Source: a virus
Taxonomy: Duplodnaviria; Caudoviricetes
DNA: 63,334 nt
Direction: 5' to 3' (one strand)
Virus record (IMG/VR): IMGVR_UViG_3300020393_000006
Location: 1-63,334 of that record
Below, piece by piece: positions 1-58,100 of this stretch. The position numbers and the translations under genes were made by a program. Position 1 is the first letter of the stretch, and each line of letters opens with the position of its first letter. The notes beneath the pieces were generated by a model. The model was not told the DNA's origin and did no database searches. It saw nothing but the letters and a program-made list of their open reading frames with translations.

Positions 1-4
1 TATC

Positions 5-193
5 ATGTCCCTGTTCGTTCACATCGTTCTCTGCACCCTTCGCGTCCTCTTCGGCCTCGGACTCGTCCTTGGCCTCGGGGCTCTCTGCTACCTGACCACT
101 GTCCACGAGTCCCTGCTCGTAACCATCTGTGGTGGTATCATGGTAGGTGCTTCCATCATCGCTGGCTGGGCTTACATCTGCCACGGCGAGTAA
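5..193 (+). CDS. Small membrane protein with two predicted TM segments; first gene of the left-arm array
   Basis: 62-aa hydrophobic ORF; its RBS (GAAAGGATCAC) lies at the window end (63318-63328) if the genome is circular. Confidence 0.7.
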   Translation: MSLFVHIVLCTLRVLFGLGLVLGLGALCYLTTVHESLLVTICGGIMVGASIIAGWAYICHGE

Positions 194-269
194 CAAGACA
201 ATGCCCCTGAGCCTCTGGCTCGGGGGCTCCTTGTTGATCTGGCAATAGTGCCGAAGAAAGGATCACATC

Positions 270-545
270 ATGAACAACCACTACGACTGCCCAATCACCG
301 TCTCTCACTTCTACACCGTTGCCGAAGGCGAAAGCCTCGAGCCCATCCGCTTCTTCCCCTCGTGGGAGGACGCCAACCTCTTCGTGGAGCGGATGGAACG
401 CAAGGAGTTCCCTCGCTGCCGAGAGTGGCACAACAACCCCAACATGGCGTTCTCCGTCGTACGAGCCTCCCAAGGCTTCGTCGTCCGGTGTGATAGCCGG
501 AACGGGGAGCCTCTCCTCTACCTCGGAAGGGAACGCAATCCCTGA
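270..545 (+). CDS. Hypothetical early protein (array unit)
   Basis: ATG follows AGAAAGGATCACATC; stop lies just before the next hairpin. Confidence 0.8.
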   Translation: MNNHYDCPITVSHFYTVAEGESLEPIRFFPSWEDANLFVERMERKEFPRCREWHNNPNMAFSVVRASQGFVVRCDSRNGEPLLYLGRERNP

Positions 546-620
546 CAACAACAGCCCCTGCGCCCATGGCGTGGGGGCTCCTTGTTGATCTGGCAATGGT
601 GCCGAAGAAAGGATCACATC

Positions 621-833
621 ATGAACATCGCACAAGTCTACCTCGACGCACTCGAACTCCTCGAAACCCGTGAGGTTCCTGCACACGACCCGACAACCAA
701 GTGTCGGTACATCTTCATCCTCAATGCCTGCTGTCAGGCAGCGGGGTACGGCGACATCGGCTGGGATTGCCCAACCGAGGACGCCAAGGCCCTCAGAGCC
801 CTCGCAAAGGGCATGGTGGACCTTCCCCTCTAA
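621..833 (+). CDS. Hypothetical early protein (array unit)
   Basis: ATG at 621 after AGAAAGGATCACATC; start trimmed from ORF 582. Confidence 0.8.
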   Translation: MNIAQVYLDALELLETREVPAHDPTTKCRYIFILNACCQAAGYGDIGWDCPTEDAKALRALAKGMVDLPL

Positions 834-917
834 CAACATCTCAAGCCCCTCAGACATCGTCTGGGGGGCTCCTTGTTGATCTGGGCAATGGTGCCCCATT
901 CAGAAAGGATCACTACC

Positions 918-2360: not shown

Positions 2361-2543
2361 ATGAACGACAACAATGACATCCGTATCTCCATCCTCGACG
2401 AACTCGCTGCCGCCAACGACAGCCTTCGTGTCATCGAGGACAAACTCAACCAAGACCCCAACAACTGGGAGTTGCAGGGTGAGTTTGACGAGCAGCAGCA
2501 AGTCTGCTTGGCTCTCGAGGGCGATCTCGAGAACTGGGGCTGA
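2361..2543 (+). CDS. Small acidic early protein (array unit)
   Basis: ATG after AGAAAGGTTCTACC. Confidence 0.75.
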   Translation: MNDNNDIRISILDELAAANDSLRVIEDKLNQDPNNWELQGEFDEQQQVCLALEGDLENWG

Positions 2544-2662
2544 GCCCTACAATCGCACAGGAAGCCACGCGCCCATCGAGGGCCCGTGGCTCCTTTGTGA
2601 TCATGGAAGCCGACAGGCGGCCTCCAGATCCCAACAAACCGATTCTAGAAAGGATCACTATC

Positions 2663-3001
2663 ATGCCCATTACTATGAGCGATGAACTCTTCACCTTCCA
2701 ACGTCGTGCTGCCGAAGTCGCCTTGCTTCTTCAGCAACGCATTGATGATCAACGCGAACACGATGGCAAGGACGTTGTGCCAGTCATCATGCACTGGTCA
2801 GTTCCATCCTTGTTGGAGGAACTGAAATGGGAAACAGAACGAGTCTGCAACAGGTTCAACATCAGCAACATGGCCGAGATTGCCATGTATGCGCTGGACC
2901 ACTTAGAGATGGACGGGCTGATCCCTAGCGGATTCGCCGCTGAAGCCTATCACTATGCCGGTTCCGAACTGGGATGGAAACTCGAAGGCTACAACAACTG
3001 A
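2663..3001 (+). CDS. Hypothetical early protein (array unit)
   Basis: ATG at 2663 after AGAAAGGATCACTATC. Confidence 0.8.
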   Translation: MPITMSDELFTFQRRAAEVALLLQQRIDDQREHDGKDVVPVIMHWSVPSLLEELKWETERVCNRFNISNMAEIAMYALDHLEMDGLIPSGFAAEAYHYAGSELGWKLEGYNN

Positions 3002-3088
3002 AGTCTCTCCAAAACCCTTGCCCCTCAGCCTCTGGCTGGGGGGCTCCTTTTTGATGACAATGGTGTCATCACAACAGGAGATTGGCAC

Positions 3089-3328
3089 ATGCCTATCGAT
3101 CCAAAGCGACTTGCCGCTAAGCAAGACAACGTGACCCCCGAGGTCGAACCTATCATCCGTCAAACTCTCGAGTTTACGGAAACCGAGTACGCTCGATTCA
3201 TGGATCTCATCTTGGCTGCCGACGAGGAACTCACTCCCGGCGATGCTATCATCTACGGACATTACAAAGCCGCCCGAGTGCGTGCCAAGTTGACCGACGC
3301 AGCCGCTAAGGAGGTGTCCCGTGGCTGA
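3089..3328 (+). CDS. Hypothetical early protein
   Basis: AGGAG RBS; overlaps the next ORF. Confidence 0.75.
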   Translation: MPIDPKRLAAKQDNVTPEVEPIIRQTLEFTETEYARFMDLILAADEELTPGDAIIYGHYKAARVRAKLTDAAAKEVSRG

Positions 3329-3614
3329 TGAGAAATCAACCATCCGTGACTTCGGTCGTTACTGCCAAATCATCTTCGTTCGGGCCACCAAGGCCCAGAC
3401 GGGGACTGACATTTGGCCCAAGCAGGGCGACACCCTTGAACTCTACGACAAGATCTACGAGTTCAAGTTCGTCCCTCGTCGCCTCAAGTCTGGCAAGACT
3501 GGGGTGAAGGCACTGGCTCGGAAGGTCGATGCACCTACCGAGTCAGGTCGCCATGTCGTGGCTGAGGCTGCGACCAAGACAGAGCCTCAAGCGTCTGAGG
3601 AACTGCCCTTCTAA
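3321..3614 (+). CDS. Early protein with an SSB-like acidic tail (…SEELPF)
   Basis: GTG start with AAGGAGGT RBS; C-terminal acidic-PF motif. Confidence 0.7.
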   Translation: MADEKSTIRDFGRYCQIIFVRATKAQTGTDIWPKQGDTLELYDKIYEFKFVPRRLKSGKTGVKALARKVDAPTESGRHVVAEAATKTEPQASEELPF

Positions 3615-3700
3615 AAGTTGCCCCGCTTCGGCGGGGCTCCTTTTTGATAATGGCGAACGGTTCGTCACTATCACCGTTCCAAATCCATAGGAGGATAACA

Positions 3701-5692
3701 ATGGAACTTCTCATCAAAGCCTTGGTCGCGGCTCTTTGCGACCGTCGTAACCTCGCCGACTGTAGCGAGTGGCACACCCCTCTGGCGCAGTCTTTCCTGC
3801 GTTACTTCCGAACCAAGCACTCCAGCCGCACGCTGGCACGCTGGATCGAGAAGAACGTGGGTGTCTTCGCCCTGTCTCAGCGTGTCAGCGTTGAGTCAGC
3901 AACCCGTACTCTCGCCCAAATCGTGGGCGAGTGGAAGGCAGCAGGGATCATCGACACACGACACGGATCCCGTGGTACGCTTGTGTCGTGGCCCAACCAC
4001 AGCAGAGACGACTTCATTGTCTTGCCTCTGCTGGAGGAGCCAGCCTTCCACAGTGGCGACACTGGTGGAACGGGTACACGTGCCATCTGCGGTGGTCGTC
4101 CTCACAAGTATGTGAGCGACCAGCAGAAGGAAGCCCTCGATGCCATCCAAGGCGTTGCGTACAGCGTGCATCCCAAGATGCTTTGTGCTGCACTCGACGC
4201 ACTGGAGCGTGGGCTGTTCGACGACCAACCGAAACGCAGTTTCGTCTTGGAACGTCGGGCTCTCGAGTTCGCGCTTGAGAACCTTGCAGATGGTGAATCG
4301 TACTGGTTGCCGGTGTTCATGGATCACCGTGGCCGCATCTACACCGACTCAGGTGCATTGCTGTCCTATCAAGGCAGCGATGTTCACCGTGGGCTCTGCT
4401 GGTATGCAGATGCCAAGGATGTGGATGTCCTGAGTACCGCGTGGGCGGAGTTCCTCGAATCGGCACAAGCCGAGTATGGGGTCACTCCAGACAATGCAGA
4501 AAGCATTGCACAATCTGACATCACAGACGTAACTGGCAAGCAGTTTCGTCGGATGGCTTGTGCAATCGCCGTTGTCGAAGTCATGACCACTGGTCGGACT
4601 TCGTACATCTGGCAGCAAGATGCCACATGCTCTGGCATGGGCAACATTGCCTGCATCACGCGAGACCCCAAACTTGCCAAAGCAACTGCCCTTCTGGGCA
4701 AGATTGCTTCGACCGATGACCTCTACTGCCAGACCTCCTCAGAGGCTGTCAGCAACCCACGCTACTTCCGTCTCACTGAAAGCGGAAAGCGTGACGAGGT
4801 CATCTTCGACTTCAGCCCTGCGCTGGAGGATACGCAAGTTTGGAACGAGTTGGCGGCCCGCACGGCAGCCAAACACCCAGTCATGTTGTCGTCATACGGC
4901 AGCAGTGCATACAGCCTTGCTCAGTCATGGATCGTCGAATGCGGCATCCTTGATGATGACGGTAACGTCATGTCCGAGCAAGCAGCCAAGGATCTCGAGT
5001 TCGAGGACTTGCAAATGCTGGACTGGAGTGATCTCGTTGGCTCACCAACCGCGTTCACTATCTCAACTGCCAAAGCCCGCTCCATGGGAGCAACGCCTTG
5101 GGATTGGTTCCTCTGCCTTGCAACGGCGTACCAGCATGCACTCATGCATCTGTACCCCAGCATTGGAGAGTTCCAATCGCACATGAAGAAGATTGCCCGA
5201 AAGACATTTGTCAATCACGGCAGACCTTCCTTCTGGCGTTCGTCTGTCGGTATGCTTTGTGTCTATGCACCAGTCATCGCTGGTGATGAGGACACGCTGC
5301 AGTTCACCACAAGCAATGGTCGTCAGTCACTGACCCTGCCAGTCTTCAGCACTACGCCATGCGTAGATGACAAGACACAGCGGGCGAAAGACATCGACCG
5401 CTTGTCTGGACAATCGGCAATGCCGCCCAACCGCATCCACTCTGAGGATGCTTCGATCGTGGTACTCAGTGTGCTCGACGTTGCCGATGATGGCATCGTT
5501 GTGTCGCCGATCCACGACTCGTGGGGTACGCACATCTGCAATGGTATTCGGATGCGTCATGCAGTCCGCAACGCCATGATCAGTGTGCATGGCAAAGACC
5601 TGCTGTCCAAGCAGGAAAAGGATGCGGACATGTTGCCACTCCACCGTGGAGATTGGAACCTCTTGGAGATCCAAGATACCTTGATCCGGTGA
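3701..5692 (+). CDS. Compact T7-family single-subunit RNA polymerase (RNAP-1, ~663 aa)
   Basis: DHRGRIY…QGSD, motif A QDATCSG, motif B RTAAKHPVMLSSYG, PPNRIHSED, motif C IHDSWGT; AGGAGG RBS before ATG 3701. Confidence 0.92.
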   Translation: MELLIKALVAALCDRRNLADCSEWHTPLAQSFLRYFRTKHSSRTLARWIEKNVGVFALSQRVSVESATRTLAQIVGEWKAAGIIDTRHGSRGTLVSWPNHSRDDFIVLPLLEEPAFHSGDTGGTGTRAICGGRPHKYVSDQQKEALDAIQGVAYSVHPKMLCAALDALERGLFDDQPKRSFVLERRALEFALENLADGESYWLPVFMDHRGRIYTDSGALLSYQGSDVHRGLCWYADAKDVDVLSTAWAEFLESAQAEYGVTPDNAESIAQSDITDVTGKQFRRMACAIAVVEVMTTGRTSYIWQQDATCSGMGNIACITRDPKLAKATALLGKIASTDDLYCQTSSEAVSNPRYFRLTESGKRDEVIFDFSPALEDTQVWNELAARTAAKHPVMLSSYGSSAYSLAQSWIVECGILDDDGNVMSEQAAKDLEFEDLQMLDWSDLVGSPTAFTISTAKARSMGATPWDWFLCLATAYQHALMHLYPSIGEFQSHMKKIARKTFVNHGRPSFWRSSVGMLCVYAPVIAGDEDTLQFTTSNGRQSLTLPVFSTTPCVDDKTQRAKDIDRLSGQSAMPPNRIHSEDASIVVLSVLDVADDGIVVSPIHDSWGTHICNGIRMRHAVRNAMISVHGKDLLSKQEKDADMLPLHRGDWNLLEIQDTLIR

Positions 5693-5738
5693 GCAATCAC
5701 CACAGCCACAGGGCCCCGCTTCGGCGGGGCTCCTGTTT

Positions 5739-5947
5739 GAATGCCAGGCCAAGGCTTGGCATTCTTCAAAGACAAAAGGAATCGCTACGCTCATCTTCCT
5801 TTGTCCTCGCCGGACAGGCCTTTGATGCGCCTACGGCGTTCCCCAAGCAGGCGGTATGTAGCCCGCTTCGCGGTCGGGAGGATTGCCATTGGCTGCTGCA
5901 ATCTCGTTGATCCGCAGCAGAACGTGATCCTCCTTTCTGATTTGGAT
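5739..5947 (+). ncRNA. Candidate structured RNA between the last two array modules
   Basis: Stems GAATGCCAGGCC/GGCTTGGCATTC and GACAAAAGGA/TCCTTTGTC; no RBS-supported ORF. Confidence 0.35.
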
Positions 5948-5981
5948 GTCTATGGCCTAGCGGCCATAGGCTCCTTTTTTT
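5948..5981 (+). terminator. Intrinsic terminator closing the array
   Basis: GTCTATGGCC-TAGC-GGCCATAGGC hairpin followed by TCC and T7. Confidence 0.65.
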
Positions 5982-6129
5982 GCGAGAGGGCGTTGCCCCC
6001 TCGCGCTCCCCCACCAAGGGGCTTTCCCCCCCTTGGATCCCCCCCTTCACTATCACTCGGTACCGGCCTTAGTCTAGTACTAACACCCGAAACCGTTCGC
6101 CGCACCACACTCAATACAGGAGTCTAGTC

Positions 6130-6375
6130 ATGAAATGCTTTACAGTTTATGATCTGTGCCGCGTTATTGTCGAACAAGCTGACGCTCTTGAAAGAGCCTT
6201 GAATCGTTTTGATTCTGCTCTTGAAACCCTTGACAACAACGAAATCTGCATTGCTCACCGCAACATGGATATCATCTTGACTGTCATGATGGCTCTTGCT
6301 GACGAAGCAACCGATGCTTTGGCCGACGATCCTGACATCTACAAAGATGATGATGAATGCTGGGGCGACCACTAA
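6130..6375 (+). CDS. Hypothetical acidic protein
   Basis: AGGAG RBS; TAATG overlap with the next gene. Confidence 0.75.
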   Translation: MKCFTVYDLCRVIVEQADALERALNRFDSALETLDNNEICIAHRNMDIILTVMMALADEATDALADDPDIYKDDDECWGDH

Positions 6376-6815
6376 TGATTGCCCTGCTTAGTCTAATGCT
6401 TTCAACCGGAGCTGGAAAAGACATTGTCTTGACCGATGCTAACATCGATCGGCTCCTCGATGCAATCTGGTACGTCGAGTCTGGTTGCCGCAATGGCCCT
6501 ATCAAGGGCGATGGCGGTAACGCCCTCGGCCCTTTGCAAATCTGGCGTGCCTTCTGGCAGGACGCCGTTGAGTTCTCTGGACAAGGCGGCAAGTACGAAG
6601 ATGTTGCTGACATCAAGTACGCCAAGAAGACAGTTAAGAACTACTGGACTCGGTACTGCACCGAGCGGAGAGTAGGAAGAAAACCCACCCTTTGGCACGC
6701 AGCTGTCATGGTTAATGGTGGACCTAACGCCCATAAAGCCTCGGGCAAGAAGAAGGCTAACCTTGTAATTTACTGGGACAAAGTTTGGGCCCGGTACCAA
6801 GCCCTAGGAGGCTAA
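6375..6815 (+). CDS. Lysozyme-like / lytic transglycosylase-like protein with N-terminal hydrophobic signal
   Basis: AIWYVESG and GPLQIWRAFWQDA motifs (ES plus G-x-x-QI of the lysozyme superfamily, i-type/destabilase-like). Confidence 0.75.
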   Translation: MIALLSLMLSTGAGKDIVLTDANIDRLLDAIWYVESGCRNGPIKGDGGNALGPLQIWRAFWQDAVEFSGQGGKYEDVADIKYAKKTVKNYWTRYCTERRVGRKPTLWHAAVMVNGGPNAHKASGKKKANLVIYWDKVWARYQALGG

Positions 6816-6816
6816 C

Positions 6817-7224
6817 ATGTCTGACACTGACGACAAACGATGGGCACCTGATGCCTACTTGCATGAGTTCGTTTACTTCAACAAAGACGACTTTCCTAAC
6901 GCCACTGGCAGGACCATTTGGACCTGTGGCCAGTATTACTTCCTCGTGTCATCCATCATCAACGAAGAGATGGATGCCAGTGAGACCATGGTCTTTCAGT
7001 GCAACAGCATTGGAGTGAAGACCAACGGAAGCCAAGATCTGGCCTTTTGTAATGATCCATATCCGGAAGTTTCGATGGTCAAAGAACTTGTCCAATCCGC
7101 TTACCGGACCTTGCACGAAGACAAGCTTCGTGAATCCATTGAGCACTTCGTGCGTTACGAAGCGACTCCTGATCAACTTCAAAGCATCAAGACAATGCAC
7201 ATGACCCCTAGAGTCTTTGACTGA
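6817..7224 (+). CDS. Hypothetical protein
   Basis: AGGAGG RBS. Confidence 0.75.
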   Translation: MSDTDDKRWAPDAYLHEFVYFNKDDFPNATGRTIWTCGQYYFLVSSIINEEMDASETMVFQCNSIGVKTNGSQDLAFCNDPYPEVSMVKELVQSAYRTLHEDKLRESIEHFVRYEATPDQLQSIKTMHMTPRVFD

Positions 7225-7231
7225 GGTTTAC

Positions 7232-7443: not shown

Positions 7444-7461
7444 TTTTTAGCGGAGAAACAA

Positions 7462-8985: not shown

Positions 8986-8987
8986 CA

Positions 8988-11939: not shown

Positions 11940-11976
11940 CAACTTGAGGTCTATAGATATACAAAAATGGAGCATT

Positions 11977-14448
11977 ATGGACGATAAAACACTTATCGGA
12001 CTAGAAATGGTTCGTGAAGAAGATATGCTTTTGGCTGGCTTACGACGGTACTGGGGTACTGCTCAGCTTCAGGATCCTTCAGAAACAGAACTAATTTCTA
12101 GCCAGTCTGCTGACAATCTACGTACTCCAGAAGAGCTTGTGATTCGCAGATATGGTTCTTATTTTCTTCCAGCATTTAACTCGATGCAGGATCGCATTGT
12201 AAACGGCATGAAGAACCACGCACAATGGGCTACGCCTGCGTTGTTTCTTACGCCAGAACACCTGTGCCTGCTTACTTTTAAGGCTCTGTTGCCTTCAGCA
12301 TATCCCAAGAGAGATCAAGGCGTTGGTGTCATCGGTAACAGGATTAAGCTCCAAAGCGCTGCTGAAAGTTTGGCTACTCAAACTTGGCAGCTCTTGCATT
12401 ACCTGCGTGCCAAAGAAGAATACCAAGAAATCTGGGAGTTCAGAACCAAACTAATTAAGAACTGGACACCGCAAAAACAAAAGAGATTTGTTAAAGAAGT
12501 TCTTGGCATGGCTGAGCTTTCAAAGAAAGAACGGCTAGCTTTTGGTGTGGCTATGATTCAGTGCGTTATTGATGCTGTTACTGATGAGCAGATAGAAGCC
12601 GGAGAGTACTATGCGAAGCGTCTTCTTATACGAGAAGGGGCTAACAGGACTACAACATACATTGAAGTAAATCCCACGCTAGTTCAAGAAATGTTGGACG
12701 ACCATAACTTTCGTCAATGGTTGAGACCTAAGTGGGGCCCAATGGTTTGTGAGCCTAACCCATGGATAAAGGATGAAAACAATCAATGGGTAGGCGGATA
12801 CTTGTTACCGGGAATGCAAATGAAATTTGTACGTCCTGCTACACCCGGCCATGATAACTATGGTAAAACAGAACCGGGAGATAAAGCAGTCCTTGCTATT
12901 AACAGGCTGCAGTCTACTCCGTATGCAGTAAATACGCAAGTCTTAGACATTATGCGTATGACTTTTCATTCTAACCTTGAGCTAGGAGAATGTCCTAAAT
13001 CTTCACAAAATGAATGGAGTTTCCCTGAGTACGACGGCGAACCAAAAAATGCCGATGGTACTTACAAAGATGATTTCAAACTACATCTAAAGAAATTAAG
13101 AGAATCTCATGAGGAGTGGGCAAAGGCATGGGCAGATCGTCTGCGCATGATTCAACGCTTAGATCTTGCAAGAGATATTTCAAAGTATCCTGCTTTCTGG
13201 TTGCCAATTACTATGGACTTCCGTGGTCGTTGTTATACTTCTACAGAAATGCTAAGTCCACAAGGCTCAGACTTTGATAAGGCTTTGTGTTGTTTTGGTA
13301 AGGCAAAACCATACACCGACAAAGCTCGATACTGGATGAAGGTACAGATTGCAAACTTGTTTGGACAAGATAAACTTTCATATGCCAATCGTATTGCTTG
13401 GTTTGAAGAAAACGAATCAGCTATACGAGATATTGCTAAGGATCCTATTAAGAATACTTGGTGGTCTGATGACGGCGATGATAAAAAGAAGTGGCAGCTT
13501 CTTGCTTCAATCCTAGATTACTATCGAGACGACGGAAAAAACCAAGTGGCCGTTCAAATGGATGGCTCTTGTAATGGCATTCAGCACTGGTCAGCTATTG
13601 GTAGAGACGAGATTGGAGCTGCTGCTACAAACTTGGTTTGGTCTGAACAACCTAATGATTTGTATCATGAAGTTGCAACAAAGGCTAACGAGCTGCTGTC
13701 TTATCCAAGAGACAATGAATGGCATAGTATTTGGCAGGACGTTTCTGTTAGCAGGAAATGCGCTAAACGTCCATGCATGACATACCCTTATGGTGTAACA
13801 GTTCGAGGCTGTATTGATGCTTTAAAGGCAGATGGACATTGTGATTGGGCAGGAGATAAAAAACTTGCTGCTGCTCAATATATTGGCAACTTGTTAATGA
13901 ATGAAGCAATACCAGCTGTTATTTCTGCATCTTATAAATATATGGCATGGGCAAAAGAAATTGCTAAACAAGCTAATGAAGCTAATACTTATGTTGAATG
14001 GACTACTCCTCTTGGAACTGTTGTTAAACATAATTATTACAAAGAAGAACGATTTCGTTTAAATGTAGATAATCAAAGAATTGTATTCGAAATTCCAAGT
14101 AAAGAAGATGCAAAACTATCTACTACAGAAATGGTAAGCGGAATTGCACCTAACTTCATACACTCATTAGATGCTACACATATGCTGGCTACTATTAATG
14201 CTATGTGGCATGATGATCTTAAATATTTTAGTATGATTCATGATTCATATGGTTGTCATGCTTGTGATGTAGAAGCAATGCAAAAACATATACGACAAAC
14301 TTTTTATTGGATGTATTCTTTTTACAATCCAGCAACAGAAGTTGCAGAAACTATGGCAGAAAAAACAGGACTAGATGCAATCTATCCACCAGAAAGCGGC
14401 GAATACGACTTGAAAGAAGTACTTATAGCTCCTTACTTTTTTGCTTAA
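11977..14448 (+). CDS. Full-length T7-like DNA-directed RNA polymerase (RNAP-2)
   Basis: PMVCEPNPW…GGY, DFRGRCY, PQGSD, motif A DGSCNGIQH, motif B RKCAKRPCMTYPYG, APNFIHSLDA, motif C IHDSYG, C-terminal YFFA. Confidence 0.97.
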   Translation: MDDKTLIGLEMVREEDMLLAGLRRYWGTAQLQDPSETELISSQSADNLRTPEELVIRRYGSYFLPAFNSMQDRIVNGMKNHAQWATPALFLTPEHLCLLTFKALLPSAYPKRDQGVGVIGNRIKLQSAAESLATQTWQLLHYLRAKEEYQEIWEFRTKLIKNWTPQKQKRFVKEVLGMAELSKKERLAFGVAMIQCVIDAVTDEQIEAGEYYAKRLLIREGANRTTTYIEVNPTLVQEMLDDHNFRQWLRPKWGPMVCEPNPWIKDENNQWVGGYLLPGMQMKFVRPATPGHDNYGKTEPGDKAVLAINRLQSTPYAVNTQVLDIMRMTFHSNLELGECPKSSQNEWSFPEYDGEPKNADGTYKDDFKLHLKKLRESHEEWAKAWADRLRMIQRLDLARDISKYPAFWLPITMDFRGRCYTSTEMLSPQGSDFDKALCCFGKAKPYTDKARYWMKVQIANLFGQDKLSYANRIAWFEENESAIRDIAKDPIKNTWWSDDGDDKKKWQLLASILDYYRDDGKNQVAVQMDGSCNGIQHWSAIGRDEIGAAATNLVWSEQPNDLYHEVATKANELLSYPRDNEWHSIWQDVSVSRKCAKRPCMTYPYGVTVRGCIDALKADGHCDWAGDKKLAAAQYIGNLLMNEAIPAVISASYKYMAWAKEIAKQANEANTYVEWTTPLGTVVKHNYYKEERFRLNVDNQRIVFEIPSKEDAKLSTTEMVSGIAPNFIHSLDATHMLATINAMWHDDLKYFSMIHDSYGCHACDVEAMQKHIRQTFYWMYSFYNPATEVAETMAEKTGLDAIYPPESGEYDLKEVLIAPYFFA

Positions 14449-46190: not shown

Positions 46191-49100
46191 ATGATAATGT
46201 CTGATAAAGATAATTTATTTTCGGTCTTGGGAAATCTTCGTTCAGCAGATGAAACCCTTGACACTTTACGCAGAAAGCGTGAAATTACTGATAACATTTT
46301 AGAAAACAATAGTAAGCTTCAAGAGCAAGACCTTTCAGGCCAATACTGGTATGATGCTGAACAAGGTGCTTTTAAAGATGATGCCACTGATACTGATTAC
46401 GCTGATGCCGTAGAAGCTGAGTGGGATTTAGGAGCTGCTGATACTCCACGTGGATTAACTGGTGCTTATAATCGTAAACGATTTCTTGACCGATCTCAAT
46501 CTATGTTATCTCTTGCTCGTACTATTCGAGGAATTGATAATAATGCGACTTTAGATGCATTAGCTAAATCAGCTAAATACGACTATAGTGAGTCTGGTTG
46601 GGCTCAAATGGGTCGTGGTGCAGTAGGAGCTATTAACATATTTCAAGATATGACTGCTGATACTAAGCAGTTCAAAGAACAAGTTAAAGCTGAAATTGGA
46701 GCTGGTGTTCCACAAGATTTAGAATTACACTTCACTCCTGAAAAGTTTGTGAAGGCTGTTCGTGAAACTAGAGCTACTGCTTTAGCTATGGATGAATATG
46801 GCATTACTGCCGAAAGCTTAAAAGGCGTTTCTAATTACGCTGATGCTGTTGAAGCCTTATCTACCCAATTGTGGATGCGAGGTCGAGAGCAGCGAGCTAG
46901 TCAACAAGTATTATCTAAAAGCGAAAGTACGCTTAAATTTGCTGCTAACTTAGGTAATATGATTCTTCAAGATCCTGATATGGCTGCAGAAATTGGATTA
47001 GAAGTTGGATCAACAATTGCTGTTGGAGTTATTTCTGCTGGTACTGCTATACCTGCATTCCTTGCAGCTAGAATTGCCCGTCGTGGTGCTTCCTTAACTA
47101 AACAGGGTTTAAGTATTACTAAAATTCAACGAAAGTTGGAAAGAGGAGAAAGCATTACTCGAGGATGGGAAGCTGTAGCACGTGCTGCAGAAACAGCTCA
47201 TATGTATAAACCCGGTTTATCTACTGGTGGTAATATTTTTGAAGCTGTTGCTCGCTCCGGTAAACTTGGAACACGTGCTTCTCAAACAAGTGCTTTTATT
47301 GCAGGCCAAATGGTAGATGGATTTATAGGTGGAGCTGGTGCTCGCTATAGATCTAATGTATTTACTAATGCTGAAGCAGTAGGACTTTACGGAGATTATG
47401 CTGATTTAGTACCCGAAACTGACCGTCTTATGTTAGATGGAGGTATGGGTATGGTATTTTCTACTTTCTTAGGATTAGGCTTTCGATTTGGTGGCCGTAA
47501 ATTCTTAAATCAATTTAGAGAAAATAAACCACAACTAGGTTTTGATGACTTTGCTCAACAAAAACTTGATGCAGCAAGAACCGAAAAAGAACAACTTCGT
47601 GCTCTTTATGGGACAGATGATGTCTCTGGAGTTAAAGCTTATCAAGCTGCACGAGCAATGAATAATGATGCTACTCTTCAAATCTCTTTAGCAACTAATA
47701 AAGATTTAGGACCTGAACAACTTCCAGATTTTACTAAATTAATTGGAAACTTAAATCAAGGCATTCCAAGCATTGAGTTTAATTTTGCTCTTGGTCGTGT
47801 CATTGACAATTTAAAGGGTCGCACAATTAGTGAAGAGTCTTTAGCTCTTCGAGTTCTTGAAGATCCCGGATTTATTCGGGCCCTTGAAGGCAATGAACGC
47901 TTGACTCCAGAAGCTTTACAAAATAAAATTAAATATCAACGTGCACATCTTGCCCGTCTTACGGGAGAACGTGATGTTGATCCTGATATTGATAAAAAAA
48001 TAAATGAAGGCAAATCACGAGAAGAAGCTATAGCTGAACTTCGTGCTGAGCGTCTTGAAGAAATTAAACAAAAACAAGCTGAACTTGAAGAACGTGAAGC
48101 TATAAAAGCTGCTGAAGCTGAAGCTGAAGCTATTCGTAAAGCAAAAGCTGAAGAACAACGACTTAAAGAAGAAGCCGATAAAGCTGCTGAAGATGTTGTT
48201 AAGGCTAAAGCAGAAGCTGAAGCTGCTCGTAAGGCTGCTGAAGAACAAGAAGCAGAACTAGAAGCTAAAGCTAAAGAATCTCCTGAAGAAGAAATTGATT
48301 CAGGTCAGCTTCAGACTGTAAAAGCTAAAGCTGAAGAAGCTGAAACTAAAGTTACAGAAGCTGATAAACAACTTGCTGCTATTACGCAAAAACAAGAAGA
48401 GTTTGATTTTGATGCTGCTCTTAAAAAACAACAAGAACGGCAACGTGCTGATCGTGCTGTTGTTGATAGAGAACGTGAAGCTTTATCCCAACGAGAAGAA
48501 GATATTCGACTAGGCCGTAAAGGCGGAGCTGGTGGATTAGATGATACTGCATTAGTACATGTTGACTATCAAAAAACTCTTGAGCTCGAACAAAAGAAAC
48601 AAAAACTCGAAAGAGCTGAACGATACTTAGGTGAATCCGAAGCCCTTCAGCCTGACAATGCTTGGATCCGGCGTAACATCGATCCAGAGTGGGACCGAGA
48701 AGGTCCTGAAGTAGTTAGTCGTGCTGAGGTTAAAAAAATTATTGAGGCTCGAAAACAAAAACTTGAAGAAGAAGCTAAAGAAGTAACAGACCAAGACCTT
48801 GCAAATCAAGAGATTCTTGATAACGAAGGAGTACGTGCTGATGCTGAGCTTTTCCTTGAAGGACAAAAAGTCCAAACTCAAGCTTTACATAATGCATTCT
48901 TAGCTGCTGGTCGTGGAGACTTTACTGGAGATCCTGCAAGATTTAGATCTGTACGTGTGCGTACCGATGATCAAGCAGAAATTGATACTCTTGCTGCTCG
49001 TGAAGATGCTAAAAAAAGAAACGCTAAGTATAGCCGAGAAGACGACCTTGATTCTCTTAGAGAAGCTGAAGTTGGTCTGGCTGCGCTTCAGCGCCAACCT

Positions 49101-52100
49101 AGTCTTGGTACTAAGACAGAAGATATTGGCACTGCAACTTACGATTCACTAGCTGCTGTCTTTGCTGATACTAAGACTCTAAAGGACATTGATCTTGAAA
49201 ACGTCTTTGGAGAAGCCATCGTTGAAGGCACTACGCCTGCTACGATGCGATTCGACATGGATAAAGCTCGTCAGGTAATTCGTCAGCGTATTGATGCTGC
49301 TGAACCAATTCAGCGAAATCCTGATGCTCTTCTTACTCCTCAACAGCTCCGACTCCGTCAGGCGTCTGAGATTGCTGACTGGAGAGCATCTAACGCTGCA
49401 CGTAGGGCTGCTGATTCTGAGTCCGGCTTTGCTGGAGCTGCAGATGCCCAAGCGTGGGAAGACGGTTTCTGGTCCTCCTTGATGCTTCGTCTAAAAGAGA
49501 CAGGCAATAATAAAAATGCTGCATATCTTCGTAGCCCTCAGGCGCTTAAAGATTACATCAACAGTCAGTTTATTCCCTACATGCGAGGCGAGCTGATTGA
49601 TCTGGGCAACGGTAAGTCTGACTTTGTTACACCAAAAATGGCAGCATTTGCTATTGCAGATATTGTTCACGGTAAGTCAGATGGCCGTACCCGATATAAA
49701 ACTACTATTAATGAACTTAACGAAGAGACAGGAGTTACTACACAAAAAACTACTGACTCTGAGTTTATTGAACGCATATCCCATGCTCAGCCCGGAACTG
49801 ATCGAGAGATTGCTCGAGTCTTGGCTAAGCTAGAGTACGATGCTCGTATGGAAGCAATTGTTCGCCTTGATTTTGATAGCCCCGGCCAGCCCTCGCTGGA
49901 TCAAGCTATTAAGTTTATTAAGGATGGAAATCTGCAGCAGGATAATAATCGAGCTCTTAACCGTGAGGAGTTTGCTACTAGAGCTTTTTGGATTCCTCCT
50001 GCCCTTCGTACAAATCTTGACCGCATAGATGAAGATATTGATGCACGTATTGAACGAGTAACTAATGAATTGCTTGAAGAAGACTTTACGGCTTATGATA
50101 TTCTTCACGACGACTTTAAGACCCGTCAGGGGGATTGGGGTGTTGCGGTTGAAGATGCCAATGGTATATTCTTTAAAAACCATGGCGTTGCTGGTGGATT
50201 CCCTGTTGCTTCTGCTATGCCAAATCCTGAGGAAGGATACTCCTTTGGTATGGCTGTTCTTGATGCTCATATGCTCTTGCACCCACAAACGTGGATGGAT
50301 ACTATCTCTGCTCAGAAGCGGGGACAAATGTTACGTGATGAGATTACTGCATTAGAAGCAAAGGATAAACTGTCAGATGCTGAGGCTAAGCGCCTACAAG
50401 TTTTGAAGTCAGGCTCCTATGTTACTTCTATTGATGGTAGTCAAAACGGTGTGCGCCATGCGCATGCTATGGCCATGCTTGAAGGCGAGCAAGCTTTTGA
50501 GACTCTTGCTGAGTTTGTTGCTAAAGGAACTGGCAAAAAACGTGACTTTTATCAAGACCTTCGTACAACTACTCTTAAATTTTTCCAAGAAACTGATGAT
50601 CCCCGTGCCAAGATTTGGTTGAATCTTGGTTTGGTCCAAGACGCAGTCAAGGGCCGTAAGTTTGCTAAAAAACCTGTTATGGTTTTGCCCTATGGCGCAG
50701 GCAAAAAAGCTATTACCAACTCTATTCGAGATAGCCTAAAAGAATTACCTGCTGAAAAACTTCGTGAATTTGATGCTGAAGCAGATCGAATCGGCGCTAG
50801 TCGAGAAGAGCTTATTAACTATCTTGGAACAGAATGGTTTGGTAAACAACAAGAAAAGAAAGCTGGGCTTATCCAGAAGGCTCTTGACCTTCCTGATGCA
50901 GATGCTCAAATGAAAGTCATTATGGCTGATTCTTCAAAAACTGACCCGTATCGCCAGCTTGCTGACGAACCGGATCGTTCGGTTGCTTTGAAGGGTATGC
51001 TTGATGAAGCACAAAAGCTTTCTGAAAATACTGGAATGGATCTTGAAGAAGCATTTTATGCTGTACAAATTCAAACTCGAGCTTTAGCAATTACTCGAGC
51101 AGATGATATTCCTCTTGAAGCTGCAGCTCAAATGGCGCGTCGTCAATTTGCTCGTGAAATGAACTTGATGCATGAGGCTAAAAAGTCAGGAGATTATTCA
51201 AAGGTTATTGCAGCCGGTGAAGCTGGTGAAATGGGCTTTGTAGAAAACTCCCTTCGGGCAATGATGCGTTCTGAATATGTTCAGTCTGAGTCTGCTCAGG
51301 CTCGGGCTACCATGGATCAAACTGGTCAGGCTGGTGCTCGTATTCAACTTCCAGAAGAAGCTGAAGGCTCGTTCTTTGCTCAGCAGCTTATGGACTGGCG
51401 TAGCCGTATGGTTACTCCAAGAAACCAAGAGTTCTTTGCTAAGGGTCGTAAGTCTGAGCGGGCAGTAATGGATATTCTGCAAGTTCTAGAAGAAGGCGAA
51501 TCTGTTGTATACAAAACTTCTAAAGCTGAAGCTGAAGCTGATTTGCATCGAGTAGATGACGATTCTTTAACTTCTGACGAATGGTTTGCTAAACATATTG
51601 ATGAAGAAAAAACAATTGCTTCTGGAGTCTTTGGTCTTCGTGATGTAGAGCTAAGAGATCGTCCTCGTGGAAAATCTAAACGTCGCGTTCTTGAAGAAAA
51701 AGCTATGAGCCTTAAAGGTAAAGAGCTTGAAGCTGAACTGAAGCGTCTTAATATTAAAAACTATTCACGAATGAAAGCCGTTGAAAAACGTGCAGCTGTT
51801 CGTGATGCTTTAATTGAAGCTGAAAAGCTAAGAATTAAAAAGCTTGTAGTTAAGTCTGCTATGGCTGAAGCTGCTCCAGAGTTTGCTCCTCCTGTTCGTC
51901 TTGATGAAGCAGGTAATGTAGCTCAAATGAGTCGCTTAACTGAAGCTGAAAAAATGGATCGATGGGAAGCTCACTCTGAAGATATTCGTAACTCAAATTC
52001 TCGTGCTAGCGAAATCTATAGTAGATTAGATAAAGACGGGAAGAAAGCATACGAAAAAAACTATGGTCGACCAATGGAATCGCTTGTCGGTCCTAATGGA

Positions 52101-55100
52101 GAGCCTATGGTTCAAGAAAAGGTTATTACTTCTGAAGCCTTTGCAAAACTTGAAGATGCGGGTGAAGTTAGTCCTCAAGCTTCTCAAACTATGGGTGGTG
52201 CTTTAGGTACAAGACCTATTCATCCTACTGAAGCTACTGACATGATGCTTGGTGTTCCTGCTGTACGTGAGCTTGCTCAAAATCGCAGCATGGGACAGCA
52301 GGGTATTACTACTAAAACAAAAGATGGTAAAATCCAAAAAACAACCAAGCGTATTGAAATTGATGGAGAAGCTTCTGGACTTCAAGCAGTACGCCGAATT
52401 CAAGATGGAGGAGATATTGTTTCTCGAGCTGAGCGTCATCGTGTTACACATACAGATGAAACTCAGCTACCTATTATTGATAAATCAGAAGAAATGTTTG
52501 ATCCTGAGTTACTTGGACGAATGCCTGATGAAACTCGAGATTTAATGATTCAAACTACCCTTACCCGTCATGCTACTAAGTTTGGTCTTAGTGATCTTGT
52601 CGAGGCAGAAGAGTGGGGCGAAATATATGCTCACCTTGTGTGGCGTAAAAATATGGAAGCTTACGGTAAAGATCTTAAAAAGCTGCAAACTATGGCGCAG
52701 CGTAAAAATGAATCTTCCGAAGCTTATATGAAACGTCGCCAAGAAGCAGAAATGAAACTTTTTGCTAAGTGGGAACAAACTACACGAGAAACTCGAGAAG
52801 GATTTGAAAAAGCGGCTAATGATGAGTGGGATTCTCATAAGATTGATCCGTTTAAGAAAATCCAAACTGTAGATGCTCGTGATGCTGAGGGTAAACCTCT
52901 TACTCGTCGTGAAGCTATTCTTAGATCTGCTAAGTTGCGATCTGATGGTAGCTTACGCTCTGATGTAAGCGCAGCTCAACGTACTAATATTGATTTAATC
53001 GCTGGTGAATCTATTGATGGTGTTCGTCATGCTGGTTCAGAAATGCCTGCTCCAATTGAAATGTCTTCAATGTCTACAGTTGGCGGTCTTTTACCTATGG
53101 CAGGTCGAAGTGATAATAAAATTTATGCTTCTAATGGTGAAGATCTTGGATCTCAAGGCTTTGCTCGTTCTCGTAAGGCTAATGGCCAAGCAGGAGAGTA
53201 CGTAGCATTTGACGATCTTTCAGATAATGCAATTCTTAAAGTTCACTTTGTTCACTCAAAAGACCGAGCAGGAGCTACTGGTTCTGTCGGAATGAGAGAA
53301 GATATTTCTCTGCTTGCAGGCTTAACTACCTCTAATGGTAAAACTATGACTGTTGCAGAAGCTCGGGATTTATTGGCAAATGCTGGATCAGAATCTGGTG
53401 AAGGTTCTATTATTGCTGGCTCTAAAGGTAATGTACGTTTCTTTACAACAGATGGTATTGAAGTAATTGATGGTATTTTTGCTGGTCATAATATTCGTCG
53501 TAATGGTACTCGTAATGAACATTATTGGATTCTTCAAAACTCTGCAAACCGATTCTTAGGAGATCGCTTATCTGTTTCTGCCCTTACACAGCGTCCCGTT
53601 CGTAGGCATAAGTCTACTTGGGAATTAATGGATGATCGAGTTCGTAGGAAAACTGCAGGCACTCGCATTGCTAATGAAAATAAAGTTATGCTTGATTGGC
53701 TAAAGGAAAAAGATCCTAAGGCTATTAAGACCTCTTCATTCCTTGGTAATGTGATGGACTTAGGACAATACTGGGCTCGTCCCGAGTTTCGTGATAGGTT
53801 GTATATGTCTGAATATGATCGTACTCTTGCAGATGCTAAACAACGTTTAGGCATTGAAGCTACTGAAATTACTAATAATGTTCATAGCGAAACAATTACT
53901 AATCTTCGTAATTATATGTTAGATGTGCCTGAAGGAAAATTAGTTAGTGAGGCTACTATTAGATCTTTAGCTAATGAAAGCACTAGAACTCGACGTACTG
54001 ATTCTGATATTACAGGCGAACCTTCTCGAACTCTTGTTAGAACAGGAAACAATCGTAAAGATGTTGTAACAGATAATTGGATTACTAAGACTACTCCTGC
54101 TGAATTAGTTAAGGGTAAAAAACAGTTTTCTGCTGATCAAGTAAATGATCTTATTGCAGATCTTGAGGCTGATCAAGATTCATTTAATCCATCTATTAAA
54201 GATCCAATTGAAGCTCGAGAGGGTGATGAAGGATTCCTTGGTAGTCGGATTACTCCTAATGAGATTAAGTTTGCTAAGCAGATCGCAGGATTGCAGATGC
54301 TGTCGGGCAATGATCTTATGGTTATTGATGCCGATTACATTGCTCGCATGGCTCCAGCAACTATGGAAGGTATTAAAGCTTCTTCTGGTATGCGTGTTGA
54401 AAATATTGTGGTTTTAGCCAATGAAGGCATTGCCCACATGCGTAAGATGCGTAAGCTTGTCAGCTTGGCAAACCAAGATGGAGTTACTGGTCATGGTATG
54501 ACTGGTCTTATTTTGCGTTTAGCTTCTGATGGCGAGATTGATCTCGATAATGTTACTGATGCAACCTACGCTAGGATTAACCGAGCATGGCATGACCATG
54601 AAGTCGGCGGCGCTGATCGAGGTGCAGATAATCTTAATAGTCCTGAAGTTATTTCACATTACCAACATCAAATTAATAATGCTAAGAAGATCCTTGCCTC
54701 TGAAGATAAGGATCCGTTTAGCGACACTACTACTCGCACCTTCCAAGGTGACTTCGTAGACCAAGCAGGCCAGAAGCGTTCTCCTGAATACTTTATGGAA
54801 GCAGACAACTATAGTCGCCTCTCTGGAGAGCATGCTAGGTTCAATGACTTCTTAGAGGATTTGTTGGCTTCGGAAACCTTGGACTTGCCTCAAGTTCGTA
54901 TGCTTCGTGCTACGACTGCTCAAATGGATGGTCGTATCTTTGCTGGCCTAAAGCTTGAAGAGCTGACTGATGCTGACTTCCGCGCTCAAGCAAAAGAGCT
55001 AGGTCTTGGGTCTGCTAAGAAGGCACGTGCTCGTGCGTTGTCTTACAGTAAGGGAAGCTTTGGCTTGTCTCTACTCAAAGGACGCATAGGTCGAGATATC

Positions 55101-58100
55101 GATGCCGTAGATGTTATTCTTCACGAAGTCGGACACGTGTCTATTAACCGAATGCTTGCAGAAAACTCTCCTGAGCTTGAGGTTGCGCGTAACATGGCTA
55201 AGTCTGCTGAAGGTGAAGCTGCTCTCCGTGAAATGGTTAAAGTCATGCATGGTGGTAAGTTTACTCAAGAAGCTGCTAGACAGTTTAAATATTTTAAAAA
55301 AGATCCTGATGAGTTTTTAGCAGCATGGTTCTCTTATACTATGATGTCTCGAACTCTGGATGATAAGGCTACTATTGTTGCTGCCTATCGAGCTCATAAA
55401 GGCTGGGGCACTGCAATTGCTAATATTGTGCGTAAGATGGCATCATATGCTTATCGGCGTATGTCTGGATTCTCTAGAGCCCTTTCAGGCTTGGAGCCCA
55501 GCTACGGTCGTAAAATGAACGAGATCATGGACCACCTTGCTGGTCGTACTGATGTTGCTCCAATGGATAAGCCTAATAACTTTGCTGCTTTTCACGCAGA
55601 AGCTGATGGACGAGCTGCAAATGTTAAAGCAGCAGAAGCTGAAGTCGAAGCTCTTAGAGCTGCAGGTGTTGAAGAAAATGAGCCTCTTATGATAAATGCT
55701 TTAAAAGATCTTCAAACTGCAATTGATGAAGCGTTAGATACTTCAGATCCCGCCCACTTTGGTGGAGATGGATTTGGTGGTCGTACTCTTCGAGACTTCC
55801 TTGCTGAAAAAGTTGAAGAACGATTTACCGAAGATGGTATTATAAACTTTGGACGCATGGTTAAAGAAGACCCAACTGCTGCTGAACAATTTCTTGCTGT
55901 TCATCTTTTACCTAAATTGCAAGAAGGTCGTTATGCGAATGTAGAAGGCGTAACTCGATCAATGGTAGAAGACTCAAGAATGACTACTAGCGAAAAAGTT
56001 AGTTTACGTACTCGAATGGATAATATCATTTTATCTCCTTCAAATGCTTCACATACAGTTAATTCTAGAGTTCAGCTTCAAATTGGAGATACTAGATTTT
56101 CTCTTATGCAGCTTATATCAGAACTTGTAGATAACCATTCAGTGCTTACACAAGCTCGTTTAAATGGAAATCAATTTAGTACTCTTACTGCTCAAGCTCG
56201 AGCTTTAGAATCAAATATAGTTCGTCCTATGGCTATGCTAGATGATGAACTACGTATGGCTTTGGCTAAAAGCACTAATAATCTCCGTGGTAAATCACGA
56301 ACATTAGCTACTGCAGGAAATGAAGATTTTCAGATGCAGTTAGCAAGTCTTCGTGAAATAGCCGGTAAACGTAATCTTCCTAGAGGAACTAAGCTACGAA
56401 AAACAGCTGATGCAGAGTTTGAAAAACTTGATCCACAAGTTAAAGAAGTTGTTGATAAAATGACTAAACAATTTGCTAAAGCTTCGGGCGAAGTTAAATC
56501 TGCTGCTCGATTGGCTAATCTTATTGGACAACGACGTGCTGAAGCTTCTGGTCTTGTGCCTATTCGTTTACGTGCAGAACATATGACTGATAAATCTAAA
56601 GTTGGAGGATTTGGTCCTGAACTGACTAAACGATATGAATCTAGTATGCTTAAGTCTAAAGACTTAGATATGGATACATTAATTGGTGTTGGTTTACTTC
56701 CTTCTCCCGGTAAAGTTATTGATGAACAGGACTTATATACATATCTTAAAAATGCAGAAAAGAATGGATTTGTAGATAAAGACGCTCTTGAAATATTTGC
56801 TTCTTCTCCACGATTCCGCGAAACTGTTCAAGCTATTCGAAAAGGCGGATTTGCAGAAATTCCTGCTATGGATGAAATTCTTACAATTAAGGGACGAAAT
56901 CTCTATATGCGTGGTATTTCTGAAGGCACAGATGCTTTTACTTCTGATGGAGGTAAACACATAACTGCACGTTTTACAGAAGAAGTAGTTAAATCTGGAT
57001 CTGCTGCTGGTAAAGTATATTATCAAACTAATAGCTCTGGCGCTCAACTTCGTGCTCTTGGCCTTGGTCGTCGTGCTGGCTCTACCTCTTATTATTTTGG
57101 TGGAGATGCTTATATGGATGTAGATACACTTTTTGATGAACTTGGAGAATTTTTTGATTACGATGTGCGTACAGGTTCGGCAGCATTACAGCGCGGTATT
57201 GGAATGCAATCTGCTGATGCAGCTAATATGAGCCGTGCCTTTGAAGCAATTGGTATGAAAGTTCGCGGATTATCTGTTAAGTCTATTCTTGATCTTTTAG
57301 ATGATATGGCTTTACGTCGTGGTAATCATGCAGCTAATGATACAATGAAACACGGTGTAGATCATCTTCGTAAAGCGTATGAACGTTTAGGTGGTGGATT
57401 ACCTACTTATGAGCGAACTGGCAATATTGTTGCCGATGGTTTAGCTCGTAATGCAACTAATGTTGCAATGCTTAAATATGGTGGTAATCTTGGTGTAGCT
57501 ATGCTTGCTGAAACCGCAGTAACAACTATGGTTGATATTGCTCCTCGTATGCTTATTACTCCAGTAAAAACAATGACAATGGTTTGGAGATCTATGACTG
57601 AAAGTATGTCTCCAATTCGTAAAACTCAAGTAGCAAGACAGCTTCTTTATGGAATGCATATTGCTCGAGATACTGTTTCTATGCGTTCATTTGATAGAAA
57701 TGTAGATGACCTTGCAGTAGCTGATCCTAATACAGGCTGGCTTACTAATACATTACGTACTGGTGCTGGTCTTACCTCTAAGTTTTCTCTTGCCCCAACT
57801 GTGCAGACTTTTAACAAAGCTTTTGCTGCTTCGGGTGCAATGGATGATTTGCTTACCCACCTAGATTCTGCTGTGCGTATGCGCGAGCTGTTAGATGAAG
57901 CAGGCGGAGTTAAGAATAAAAAGGAATTCCAAGAGCTGGCTAAAAAAGCAGGCTTTGGGCGGAACTGGACTCTGGCTTTGCGTATGCAGGATGCAGGACT
58001 TCTTGATCCGTCAACAATCTCTCAGATTCGTGAGTTTGCTAATTCATCTGATGCTATGACTACTCGTATTCTTGATATTGATTCATGGTCAGATGAAGCA

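Follow-up and report, generated by a model that had tools for sequence, protein, structure and literature searches.

The gene at positions 3701-5692 of the viral record IMGVR_UViG_3300020393_000006 encodes a real, conserved, miniaturised and probably active DNA-dependent RNA polymerase (RNAP) of the T7 family. The record, from an uncultured marine phage, was analysed as a whole (63,334 bp, hereafter the window); it is complete and looks circularly permuted, since its two ends share a few bases that belong to a repeated 5' element. We hypothesized, at a probability of roughly 55%, that this compact RNAP is a stage-specific phage polymerase with its own promoter class, handing over to a canonical T7-like RNAP encoded downstream. 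New here are the domain anatomy of the compact enzyme, the wider compact clade to which it belongs, the finding that a canonical RNAP accompanies it almost constantly, the cis elements around its gene and the comparison with the RNAPII of phage N4. The gene and its ribosome-binding site are located as follows.

3701..5692, + strand: compact T7-family RNAP gene, 663 amino acids plus stop (reading frame, Pfam, PHROG, T7 alignment, structural model)
3689-3694, + strand: Shine-Dalgarno sequence AGGAGG, 6 nt before the ATG at 3701 (read off the sequence)

The compact RNAP is encoded by a single uninterrupted open reading frame (ORF), open on the + strand from 3644 to 5692, with its likely start at ATG 3701; its relatives are likewise single-chain, and the protein-database cluster representative, 99% identical, is also 663 amino acids long. 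Pfam RNA_pol (PF00940) matched residues 305-641 (E = 8.7e-23, 81.3 bits, cut-off 22). The PHROG family phrog_414, 'RNA polymerase', aligned residues 191-657 with profile positions 374-808 of 816 (1.7e-45), so that no more than ~190 residues of the compact enzyme correspond to the initial ~370 positions of a normal phage RNAP. Sequence alignment with T7 RNAP paired residues 184-248 with T7 394-459, and 552-636 with T7 758-843. RPOL_N, the full N-terminal promoter-binding domain of ~265-325 residues, gave no Pfam match in the compact RNAP.

The catalytic motifs were compared in a close-family alignment of 7 sequences (A1) and in a separate family alignment of 111 sequences.

4322..4336, + strand: DxRGR motif, D208-H-R-G-R212 (sequence and alignments)
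4613..4636, + strand: motif A, QQDATCSG, with catalytic D307; D307 and G312 invariant
4859..4900, + strand: motif B, with R387, K391, M395, Y399 and G400 (alignments)
5438..5518, + strand: H580/D583 (PNRIHSEDAS) and motif C, IHDSWGT, with H605-D606 (T7 alignment and family alignments)
5678..5689, + strand: C-terminus TLIR; I662 invariant in the 7 A1 sequences, last model residue equivalent to T7 883

An initial annotation, made from the DNA letters, had described all catalytic motifs as intact, the DxRGR motif as lying only about 207 residues from the start, and the C-terminus as TLIR. All three descriptions held: DHRGR occupies residues 208-212, D307, R387/K391/Y399, H580 and H605-D606 were found in place, and the translation ends in TLIR. 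In the 111-sequence alignment R212, D307, G312, K391, D583 and D606 were invariant, and D208, R210, Y214, R387, Y399, H580 and H605 were conserved at 90% or more.

An AlphaFold2 model of the compact RNAP, a predicted and not an experimental structure, was built on the 111-sequence alignment and reached a mean predicted local distance difference test score (pLDDT) of 94.2 and a predicted template modelling score of 0.93. A Foldseek comparison, proposed with the initial annotation, placed T7 RNAP complexes (E = 4.1e-21) and mitochondrial RNAPs on top. With VIA-align the best match was the T7 elongation complex 8dh1_L (Z 36.2, root-mean-square deviation 3.2 A, 453 residues); N4 mini-vRNAP scored a Z of about 20. 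Model residues 105..662 superposed on T7 266..882 of 8dh1_L, at ~20% sequence identity in the structural alignments. The model contains the entire catalytic body, the counterpart of T7 266-883, in the right-hand fold of palm, fingers and thumb. Three predicted elements distinguish the remainder of the chain.

3701..4012, + strand: N-terminal domain, residues 1-104; four helices and a beta-hairpin (85-96), winged-helix-like, in place of T7 1-265
4013..4321, + strand: linker and shortened thumb, residues 105-207; ~104 residues against ~156 in T7 (266-421), helices 140-150, 158-169 and 182-194
5276..5350, + strand: long beta-hairpin, residues 526-550; strands 526-537 and 540-550, at the position of the T7 specificity loop

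The sequence of hairpin 526-550 varies among the A1 relatives, and the sequence alignment with T7 resumes at residue 552, equivalent to T7 758. Folded alone, the N-terminal domain (1-104) reached a pLDDT of 77.7. Its top VIA-align row was T7 RNAP 74..254, with 103 residues aligned at a Z of 7.2, a value in the range that the tool calls common; winged-helix domains of the ORC2, Fur, HlyU and SmtB/ArsR type tied with T7 at Z 6-7, and no row reached Z 8. Aligned as a whole, the model enters the T7 N-terminal domain in initiation-state structures (4..659 on 77..878 of 1aro; 8..663 on 146..883 of 1cez). We read residues 1-104 of the model as a reduced, winged-helix-like domain that either remains from the promoter-binding domain of T7 or replaces it, and not as the absence of that domain, and hypothesize that the predicted hairpin 85-96 corresponds to the T7 intercalating hairpin. 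RPOL_N gave no match and 104 residues stand for 265, but a small domain does occupy the T7 N-terminal position. To speak of a lacking promoter-binding domain, as in the initial annotation, is an overstatement, because both a folded segment 1-104 and a hairpin at the specificity-loop position are present in the model. Overall, the compact enzyme shares with T7 RNAP (883 amino acids; PDB 1cez, 1qln, 1msw, 8dh1) the fold, the catalytic residues, a specificity-loop-like hairpin and the C-terminal end point; it differs in having ~160 fewer N-terminal residues (104 vs. 265), a thumb region ~50 residues shorter, and a C-terminus of LIR where T7 RNAP has FAFA.

The compact RNAP is neither a truncation nor a recent duplicate of the window's canonical RNAP. 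Seven database matches of near-equal length (629-663 amino acids) covered 97-100% of it, one at 99% and six at 37-71% identity, and in alignment A1 these six share their N-terminus with the window protein. The enzyme had been called unsplit, and an upstream frameshifted segment that would restore a full-length polymerase was looked for and not found: no RNAP-related Pfam or PHROG family was present in the two small upstream ORFs, and neither those two nor eight other small ORFs of the region had a significant family. An upstream frameshift or a split N-terminal domain is ruled out by the terminator-like hairpin in front of the gene, the Shine-Dalgarno sequence and the shared N-terminus of the relatives. 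A recent copy of the window's canonical RNAP can likewise be dismissed, as the two enzymes are 27% identical over partial alignments and fall in separate tree clades.

An exhaustive HMMER search returned 1174 representatives at E <= 1e-3 and only 6 at E <= 1e-30, many of the next-best being 476-640 amino acids long. A phylogeny had been suggested for the enzyme. The tree comprised 69 rows, namely the query's best hits of 440-1100 amino acids plus six references (T7 RNAP, N4 gp16, gp3 and gp29 of Alteromonas phage vB_AspP-H4/4, the window's canonical RNAP and its orthologue on the related 61-kb contig L009), and was inferred under LG+G4 with a quick search, Shimodaira-Hasegawa-like approximate likelihood ratio test (SH-aLRT) support and a midpoint root. 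The compact RNAP sits in a clade of 36 rows (SH-aLRT 95) that holds only proteins of 476-663 amino acids. T7 RNAP, mitochondrial-size proteins, the canonical RNAP, H4/4 gp3 and N4 gp16 lie on the opposite side, where the window's canonical RNAP is sister to the 827-residue protein of L009 and adjoins H4/4 gp29. Within the compact clade DxRGR lies at residues 119-218 wherever a simple pattern finds the motif, placing the window enzyme at the large end of the clade. Among those examined here, the compact clade (476-663 amino acids as sampled) appears to hold the smallest one-chain T7-type RNAPs; our literature search found no biochemical study of a single-chain T7-type RNAP of ~650 amino acids.

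Three representatives of 476-488 amino acids (P0039, P0045 and P0060) look like complete T7-type RNAPs, with DxRGR at 119-125 and motifs A and C present, and judged on sequence would be among the smallest single-chain RNAPs; the P0039 cluster has 486-residue members on contigs of up to 22 kb. The origin of ten clusters was checked: nine belong to the compact clade, and the tenth is that of P0036, the neighbour of N4 gp16 in the tree. Every one was metagenomic, and the few that carry a name are called 'hypothetical protein', 'DNA-directed RNA polymerase' or 'RNAP2'. When 50,697 deposited phage genomes were searched by tblastn with the compact RNAP and the clade members P0012 and P0027, all matches were partial, to canonical RNAPs and at 20-31% identity. 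In three further metagenomic relatives (loci L014, L016 and L026) the RNAP is present as adjacent ORFs (219+389, 361+171 and 192+310+153 amino acids); unless these splits are assembly frameshifts, split RNAPs occur outside N4-like phages too.

The window also encodes a full-size enzyme on the same strand, starting 8.2 kb downstream of the compact gene.

11944..14448, + strand: canonical T7-like RNAP ('RNAP-2', 834-residue frame); phrog_414 6.7e-172, Pfam 6.6e-81

This canonical RNAP has a weak RPOL_N match and is followed by genes for primase/helicase, DNA polymerase, ribonucleotide reductase, portal and tail. The initial annotation had put its DxRGR motif at about residue 413. Counted from the TTG of the 834-residue frame, DFRGR lies at 425-429, and the earlier figure presumably uses a later start codon; the gap of ~210 residues between the two enzymes stands. 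Contig L009 has the same gene order (compact RNAP, 827-residue RNAP, primase/helicase). In IMG/VR the close-family alignment A1 retrieved no relatives; a wider compact-clade alignment (A4) retrieved 12 loci, and the full records of 10 were searched. Nine of the ten carry a compact-clade RNAP (frames of 483-651 residues) together with a canonical RNAP (810-850 residues) on one strand and 7-13 kb apart, and in the tenth the sequence stops 1.6 kb past the compact gene.

An extra phage RNAP of this kind is not in itself new. AG-10.1, an uncultured marine group of Autographiviridae with unusually large genomes, was defined in 2025 (Commun Biol; PMC12361551), and that paper describes an additional RNAP of ~650 amino acids, surrounded by small unknown genes and upstream of the typical RNAP of ~800 amino acids, in 23 AG-10.1 genomes, together with a protein of 3274-5566 amino acids in all members, four of these proteins carrying PF00940. 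Its authors suggest a horizontal origin of the extra RNAPs and the use of different RNAPs for different genes; that account, made independently, favours a stage-specific role of the compact enzyme. The window has a 663-residue RNAP upstream of a typical one, among small family-less ORFs, and a 4245-residue ORF in a large (63,334 bp), marine and uncultured record. Since it fits every AG-10.1 feature tested from the accessible text, the existence of the extra polymerase was already known; as far as that text goes, the extra RNAP is treated there at the level of annotation and tree only (PMC12361551). A cultured T7-like phage, vB_AspP-H4/4 (Foturvirus), also has two single-subunit RNAPs, gp3 (708 amino acids, early region) and gp29 (796 amino acids, before the structural genes). 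Of the two, gp29 is the closest to the canonical RNAP of the window (30% identity over 87%). In contrast, gp3 falls outside the compact clade, is 26% identical to the compact RNAP over residues 109-401 only, and its gene occupies a different position.

The role that we favour for the compact RNAP has three steps. It would be made before the 834-residue canonical RNAP; unaided, it would recognise promoters of a class of its own and so express early or middle genes; and the canonical RNAP would then take over the replication and structural genes. We infer the enzymatic activity, timing, promoter identity and division of labour in this scheme. The compact gene lies among small early-type ORFs and has its own conserved upstream element, TCACTATCAC, within a GC-rich block with the following hairpins.

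3620..3637, + strand: upstream GC hairpin with 7-bp stem and TTCG loop, followed by TCCTTTTTGAT (exact 18-mer, listed as terminator-like)
3665..3674, + strand: conserved element TCACTATCAC, 27 nt upstream of the start codon; candidate core of a phage-RNAP promoter
5713..5730, + strand: second copy of this hairpin, downstream of the gene, with TCCTGTTTGA after it (exact 18-mer, terminator-like)

GC content is 0.56-0.58 in bases 1-6000 of the window and about 0.40 elsewhere. At least 11 short units form an array that makes up the GC-rich block (1-6100 and 63100-63334). In each unit a hairpin rich in GC, bearing either T.G wobbles on the + strand or a TTCG loop, precedes GGCTCC(T/G)nTTGAT. The wobbles and the TTCG loop suggest, from the sequence, that the hairpins work as RNA. 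Most units contain a small inverted repeat with a co-varying stem (GGCA/TGCC, GGGCA/TGCCC, GAGCA/TGCTC, GACA/TGTC), and in each unit AGAAAGGATCACTATC stands directly before the ATG of a family-less ORF. The compact RNAP gene is, as had been noted, itself an array unit, though with a longer leader, and the flanking hairpins are identical as described: the 18-mer GCCCCGCTTCGGCGGGGC occurs exactly twice in the window, and none of 100 shuffles contained two matches. With its T-rich tail, the hairpin at 3620..3637 looks like an intrinsic terminator ending the preceding unit.

Four distinct sequences of the GC-rich clade (the window, L006, L004 and L007/L010) carry the element TCACTATCAC, with differing flanks, 27-29 nt before the start codon of the orthologous gene. 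It is absent from the AT-rich subclade (L008, L009, L011-L013), where the compact gene abuts upstream ORFs. The exact TCACTATCA occurs five times in the window, always on the + strand and inside the GC-rich block, and both this sequence and TCACTATCAC resemble T7 promoter positions -8..-2, TCACTAT. In bases 1-16000, 10 sigma-70-like sites were found against 17.9 expected from shuffles; the sole + strand site is at 6125, and none is on the + strand within the array. This shortfall counts in favour of the stage-specific role.

Several results count against this stage-specific role. Repeat families, genome-wide 11-mers (a search dominated by coding bias) and shared intergenic k-mers revealed no repeated promoter consensus outside the GC-rich block, and exact TCACTATCA is found only inside it; no target genes of the compact RNAP emerged from these searches. 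'Early' follows from gene order only, in a record that looks circularly permuted and has overlapping ends. Tree rows picked by similarity to the query bias the composition of the compact clade, and with a quick search and an arbitrary midpoint root only the separation of the clades is meaningful, not the direction of change. Apart from its commonplace T7 score, the isolated N-terminal domain gave nothing in Foldseek at E <= 0.001, the weak top rows being winged-helix regulators. A short thumb and a small N-terminal domain, as in the compact RNAP, are features of N4 RNAPII tied to its dependence on a cofactor and single-stranded DNA (PMC4496689). The phage sequence was found in marine metagenomes of 11 studies. 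Contigs from two metatranscriptome runs cover parts of the compact RNAP gene, which is weak support for the stage-specific role as DNA carry-over is possible; gaps in their coverage carry no meaning, and such contigs cannot show transcript starts or ends, strand, level or even transcription. As hints only, a 238-nt RNA contig spans 3672-3909 with no mismatch and starts at the last base of TCACTATC, and another (about 2358-2548) starts at the ATG of a small array ORF.

A different and possible, though less convincing, explanation is a single-chain enzyme working like N4 RNAPII, which would need a small phage cofactor binding single-stranded DNA or a pre-melted or structured template, as the initial annotation proposed by analogy with N4. 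The comparison of size with N4 RNAPII in the initial annotation is right: gp15 (269) and gp16 (404) sum to 673 amino acids, with a truncated N-terminal domain and thumb, according to a review (PMC4496689). There the N4 enzyme is, like the compact RNAP, a minimal T7-family polymerase in a phage with more than one RNAP, and it is an early product (PMC4496689). Total size and both truncations thus speak for this explanation, and in pairwise BLASTP residues 100-242 of the compact RNAP align with N4 gp15 115-269, a range that takes in the DxRGR block, with a weak E of 0.014 (the two comparisons gave 0.014 and 0.021, indicating no close kinship). N4 RNAPII (PDB 6dt7/6dt8/6dta), unlike the one-chain compact RNAP, consists of two subunits and depends on gp1 and gp2. 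In the tree, N4 gp16 groups with P0036, across from the compact RNAP, and the A1 profile finds T7 RNAP (1e-22) and mitochondrial RNAPs but misses the N4 RNAPII chain 6dt7_B at E <= 0.01. The compact RNAP is functionally analogous to N4 RNAPII and not its kin. It has, moreover, both an N-terminal domain with a beta-hairpin and a long specificity-loop-like hairpin, which count against a need for assisted melting of this kind.

A candidate partner lies directly upstream of the compact gene.

3089..3614, + strand: two overlapping small ORFs (79 and 97 amino acids); conservation limited to the GC-rich subclade, family in neither Pfam nor PHROG

The 97-residue protein (3321..3614) and its homologues (L006:964-1257 and L004:909-1211) all end in an acidic tail plus LPF, which we take to resemble the C-terminal tip of bacterial single-stranded DNA-binding protein (SSB). 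By this analogy the protein could be a cofactor binding single-stranded DNA or an SSB-tip mimic; the usual SSB gene is missing from AG-10.1 phages according to the paper defining them (PMC12361551). The 79- and 97-residue proteins are, however, confined to the GC-rich subclade (L006, L004/L005, L010) and absent upstream of the orthologue in L008, L009 and L011-L013. Homologues of N4 gp1 and gp2 were not found in the window, the best tblastn match (E = 0.085) lying inside the giant gene described below; cofactors of the gp1/gp2 type are fast-evolving ORFans, and missing similarity decides nothing. Complex prediction for the compact RNAP with the 97-residue protein scored 0.00, which speaks neither for nor against binding, and Protein Atlas leads for the 97-residue protein were all sub-threshold (best 0.85; Phage_SSB cluster 0.78).

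The stage-specific role of the compact RNAP could also be one part of a larger scheme with a third polymerase, for which the window offers the following candidate.

46191..58928, + strand: giant protein of 4245 amino acids with an RNAP-like stretch; motif A-like SIDGSQNGVRH, motif B-like RKFAKKPVMVLPYGAG

Before the giant gene come the terminase gene and then two ORFs, of 212 and 1169 amino acids; neither these two ORFs nor the giant one has a PHROG family. The size order of 212, 1169 and 4245 amino acids resembles that of the T7 ejection proteins gp14/15/16. Pfam RNA_pol scored 16.7 bits against the giant protein alone and 22.3 bits in the genome search. With hhalign, the single giant sequence matched the 111-sequence RNAP alignment at a probability of 95.9% over the A-B region, and an alignment of ten homologues plus the window segment matched it at 97.5% (E = 6.5e-12; giant residues 1069-1765, greedy alignment). 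In tblastn about 120 residues of the giant protein matched canonical phage RNAPs at 30-37% identity. Homologues are 2869-4584 amino acids long, and one of the IMG/VR records above also has a 5140-residue frame with a weak RNA_pol match. No equivalent of motif C was recognised in the giant protein, and the giant-protein query P0157 found no match in five related records, a search run without a positive control and thus uninformative. Judged on these sequence matches, the giant protein may be a third, injected polymerase.

An N4-style, host-RNAP-independent relay of three polymerases, evolved inside Autographiviridae, would follow, and we consider it rather unlikely. The giant protein, ejected as a gp16-like virion protein, would start transcription of the GC-rich block, in which the compact RNAP gene lies; early and middle transcription would next be boosted by the compact RNAP, acting at TCACTATC-type promoters, a part of which would yield leaderless mRNAs; and the canonical RNAP would take over replication and late genes. 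A single-chain minimal polymerase would then stand in the place of N4 RNAPII. Three RNAPs are called unique to N4 in the review cited above (PMC4496689).

Considerably less probable is a dedicated polymerase that makes primers or R-loops to start DNA replication at an origin and is no general transcriptase. Single-subunit RNAPs prime replication in T7 and mitochondria, and the finding of no target promoters outside the GC-rich block fits such a role. Against it, the phage has its own primase/helicase (phrog_239, 1e-166), and the compact gene lies among small early-type ORFs outside the replication module and is paired with the canonical RNAP, not with replication genes. A passenger or decaying paralogue acquired by horizontal transfer and without a needed function, as might be read from the deviating GC content of the block (0.56-0.58 vs. 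~0.40) and from the horizontal origin suggested for extra RNAPs in PMC12361551, is hardly credible, given catalytic residues that are invariant in relatives down to 37% identity, full length that is kept, synteny with the canonical RNAP that holds across a deep clade, and an L009 orthologue with the low GC content of its own genome (0.35), which makes the compact gene older than the GC-rich block.

The compact enzymes matter in three respects. Their naturally minimised N-terminal domain could show, by comparison with that of T7, how little suffices to recognise and melt a promoter. As small, orthogonal polymerases of one chain, they would lend themselves to in vitro transcription and to genetic circuits. 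The constant pairing of compact and canonical enzymes, sometimes with a giant protein bearing RNAP motifs, points to multi-polymerase relays in globally distributed uncultured marine phages.

Some further features of the window were recorded. The borders of the GC-rich block (5975-6100 and 63120-63215) contain C runs and G-rich inverted repeats (e.g. CCCCCACCAAGGGGCTTTCCCCCCCTTGGATCCCCCCC). Contigs from other samples join array units in a different order (e.g. 1399 to 2675), and these alternative joins suggest that the units shuffle modularly at conserved elements. From the shared intergenic k-mers, the AT-rich motif AATAATATTTA was found at 11 sites, one mismatch allowed, against 2.8 expected. 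Four of these (27149, 31006, 32401 and 46119, + strand) mark the ends of genes or intergenic boundaries within the late region, and the motif is a candidate promoter or terminator-adjacent element tied to neither RNAP. In the middle region a tRNA-Leu gene (anticodon TAA) is located at 8988-9061, and its tRNA could suit the AT-rich codons used across most of the genome.

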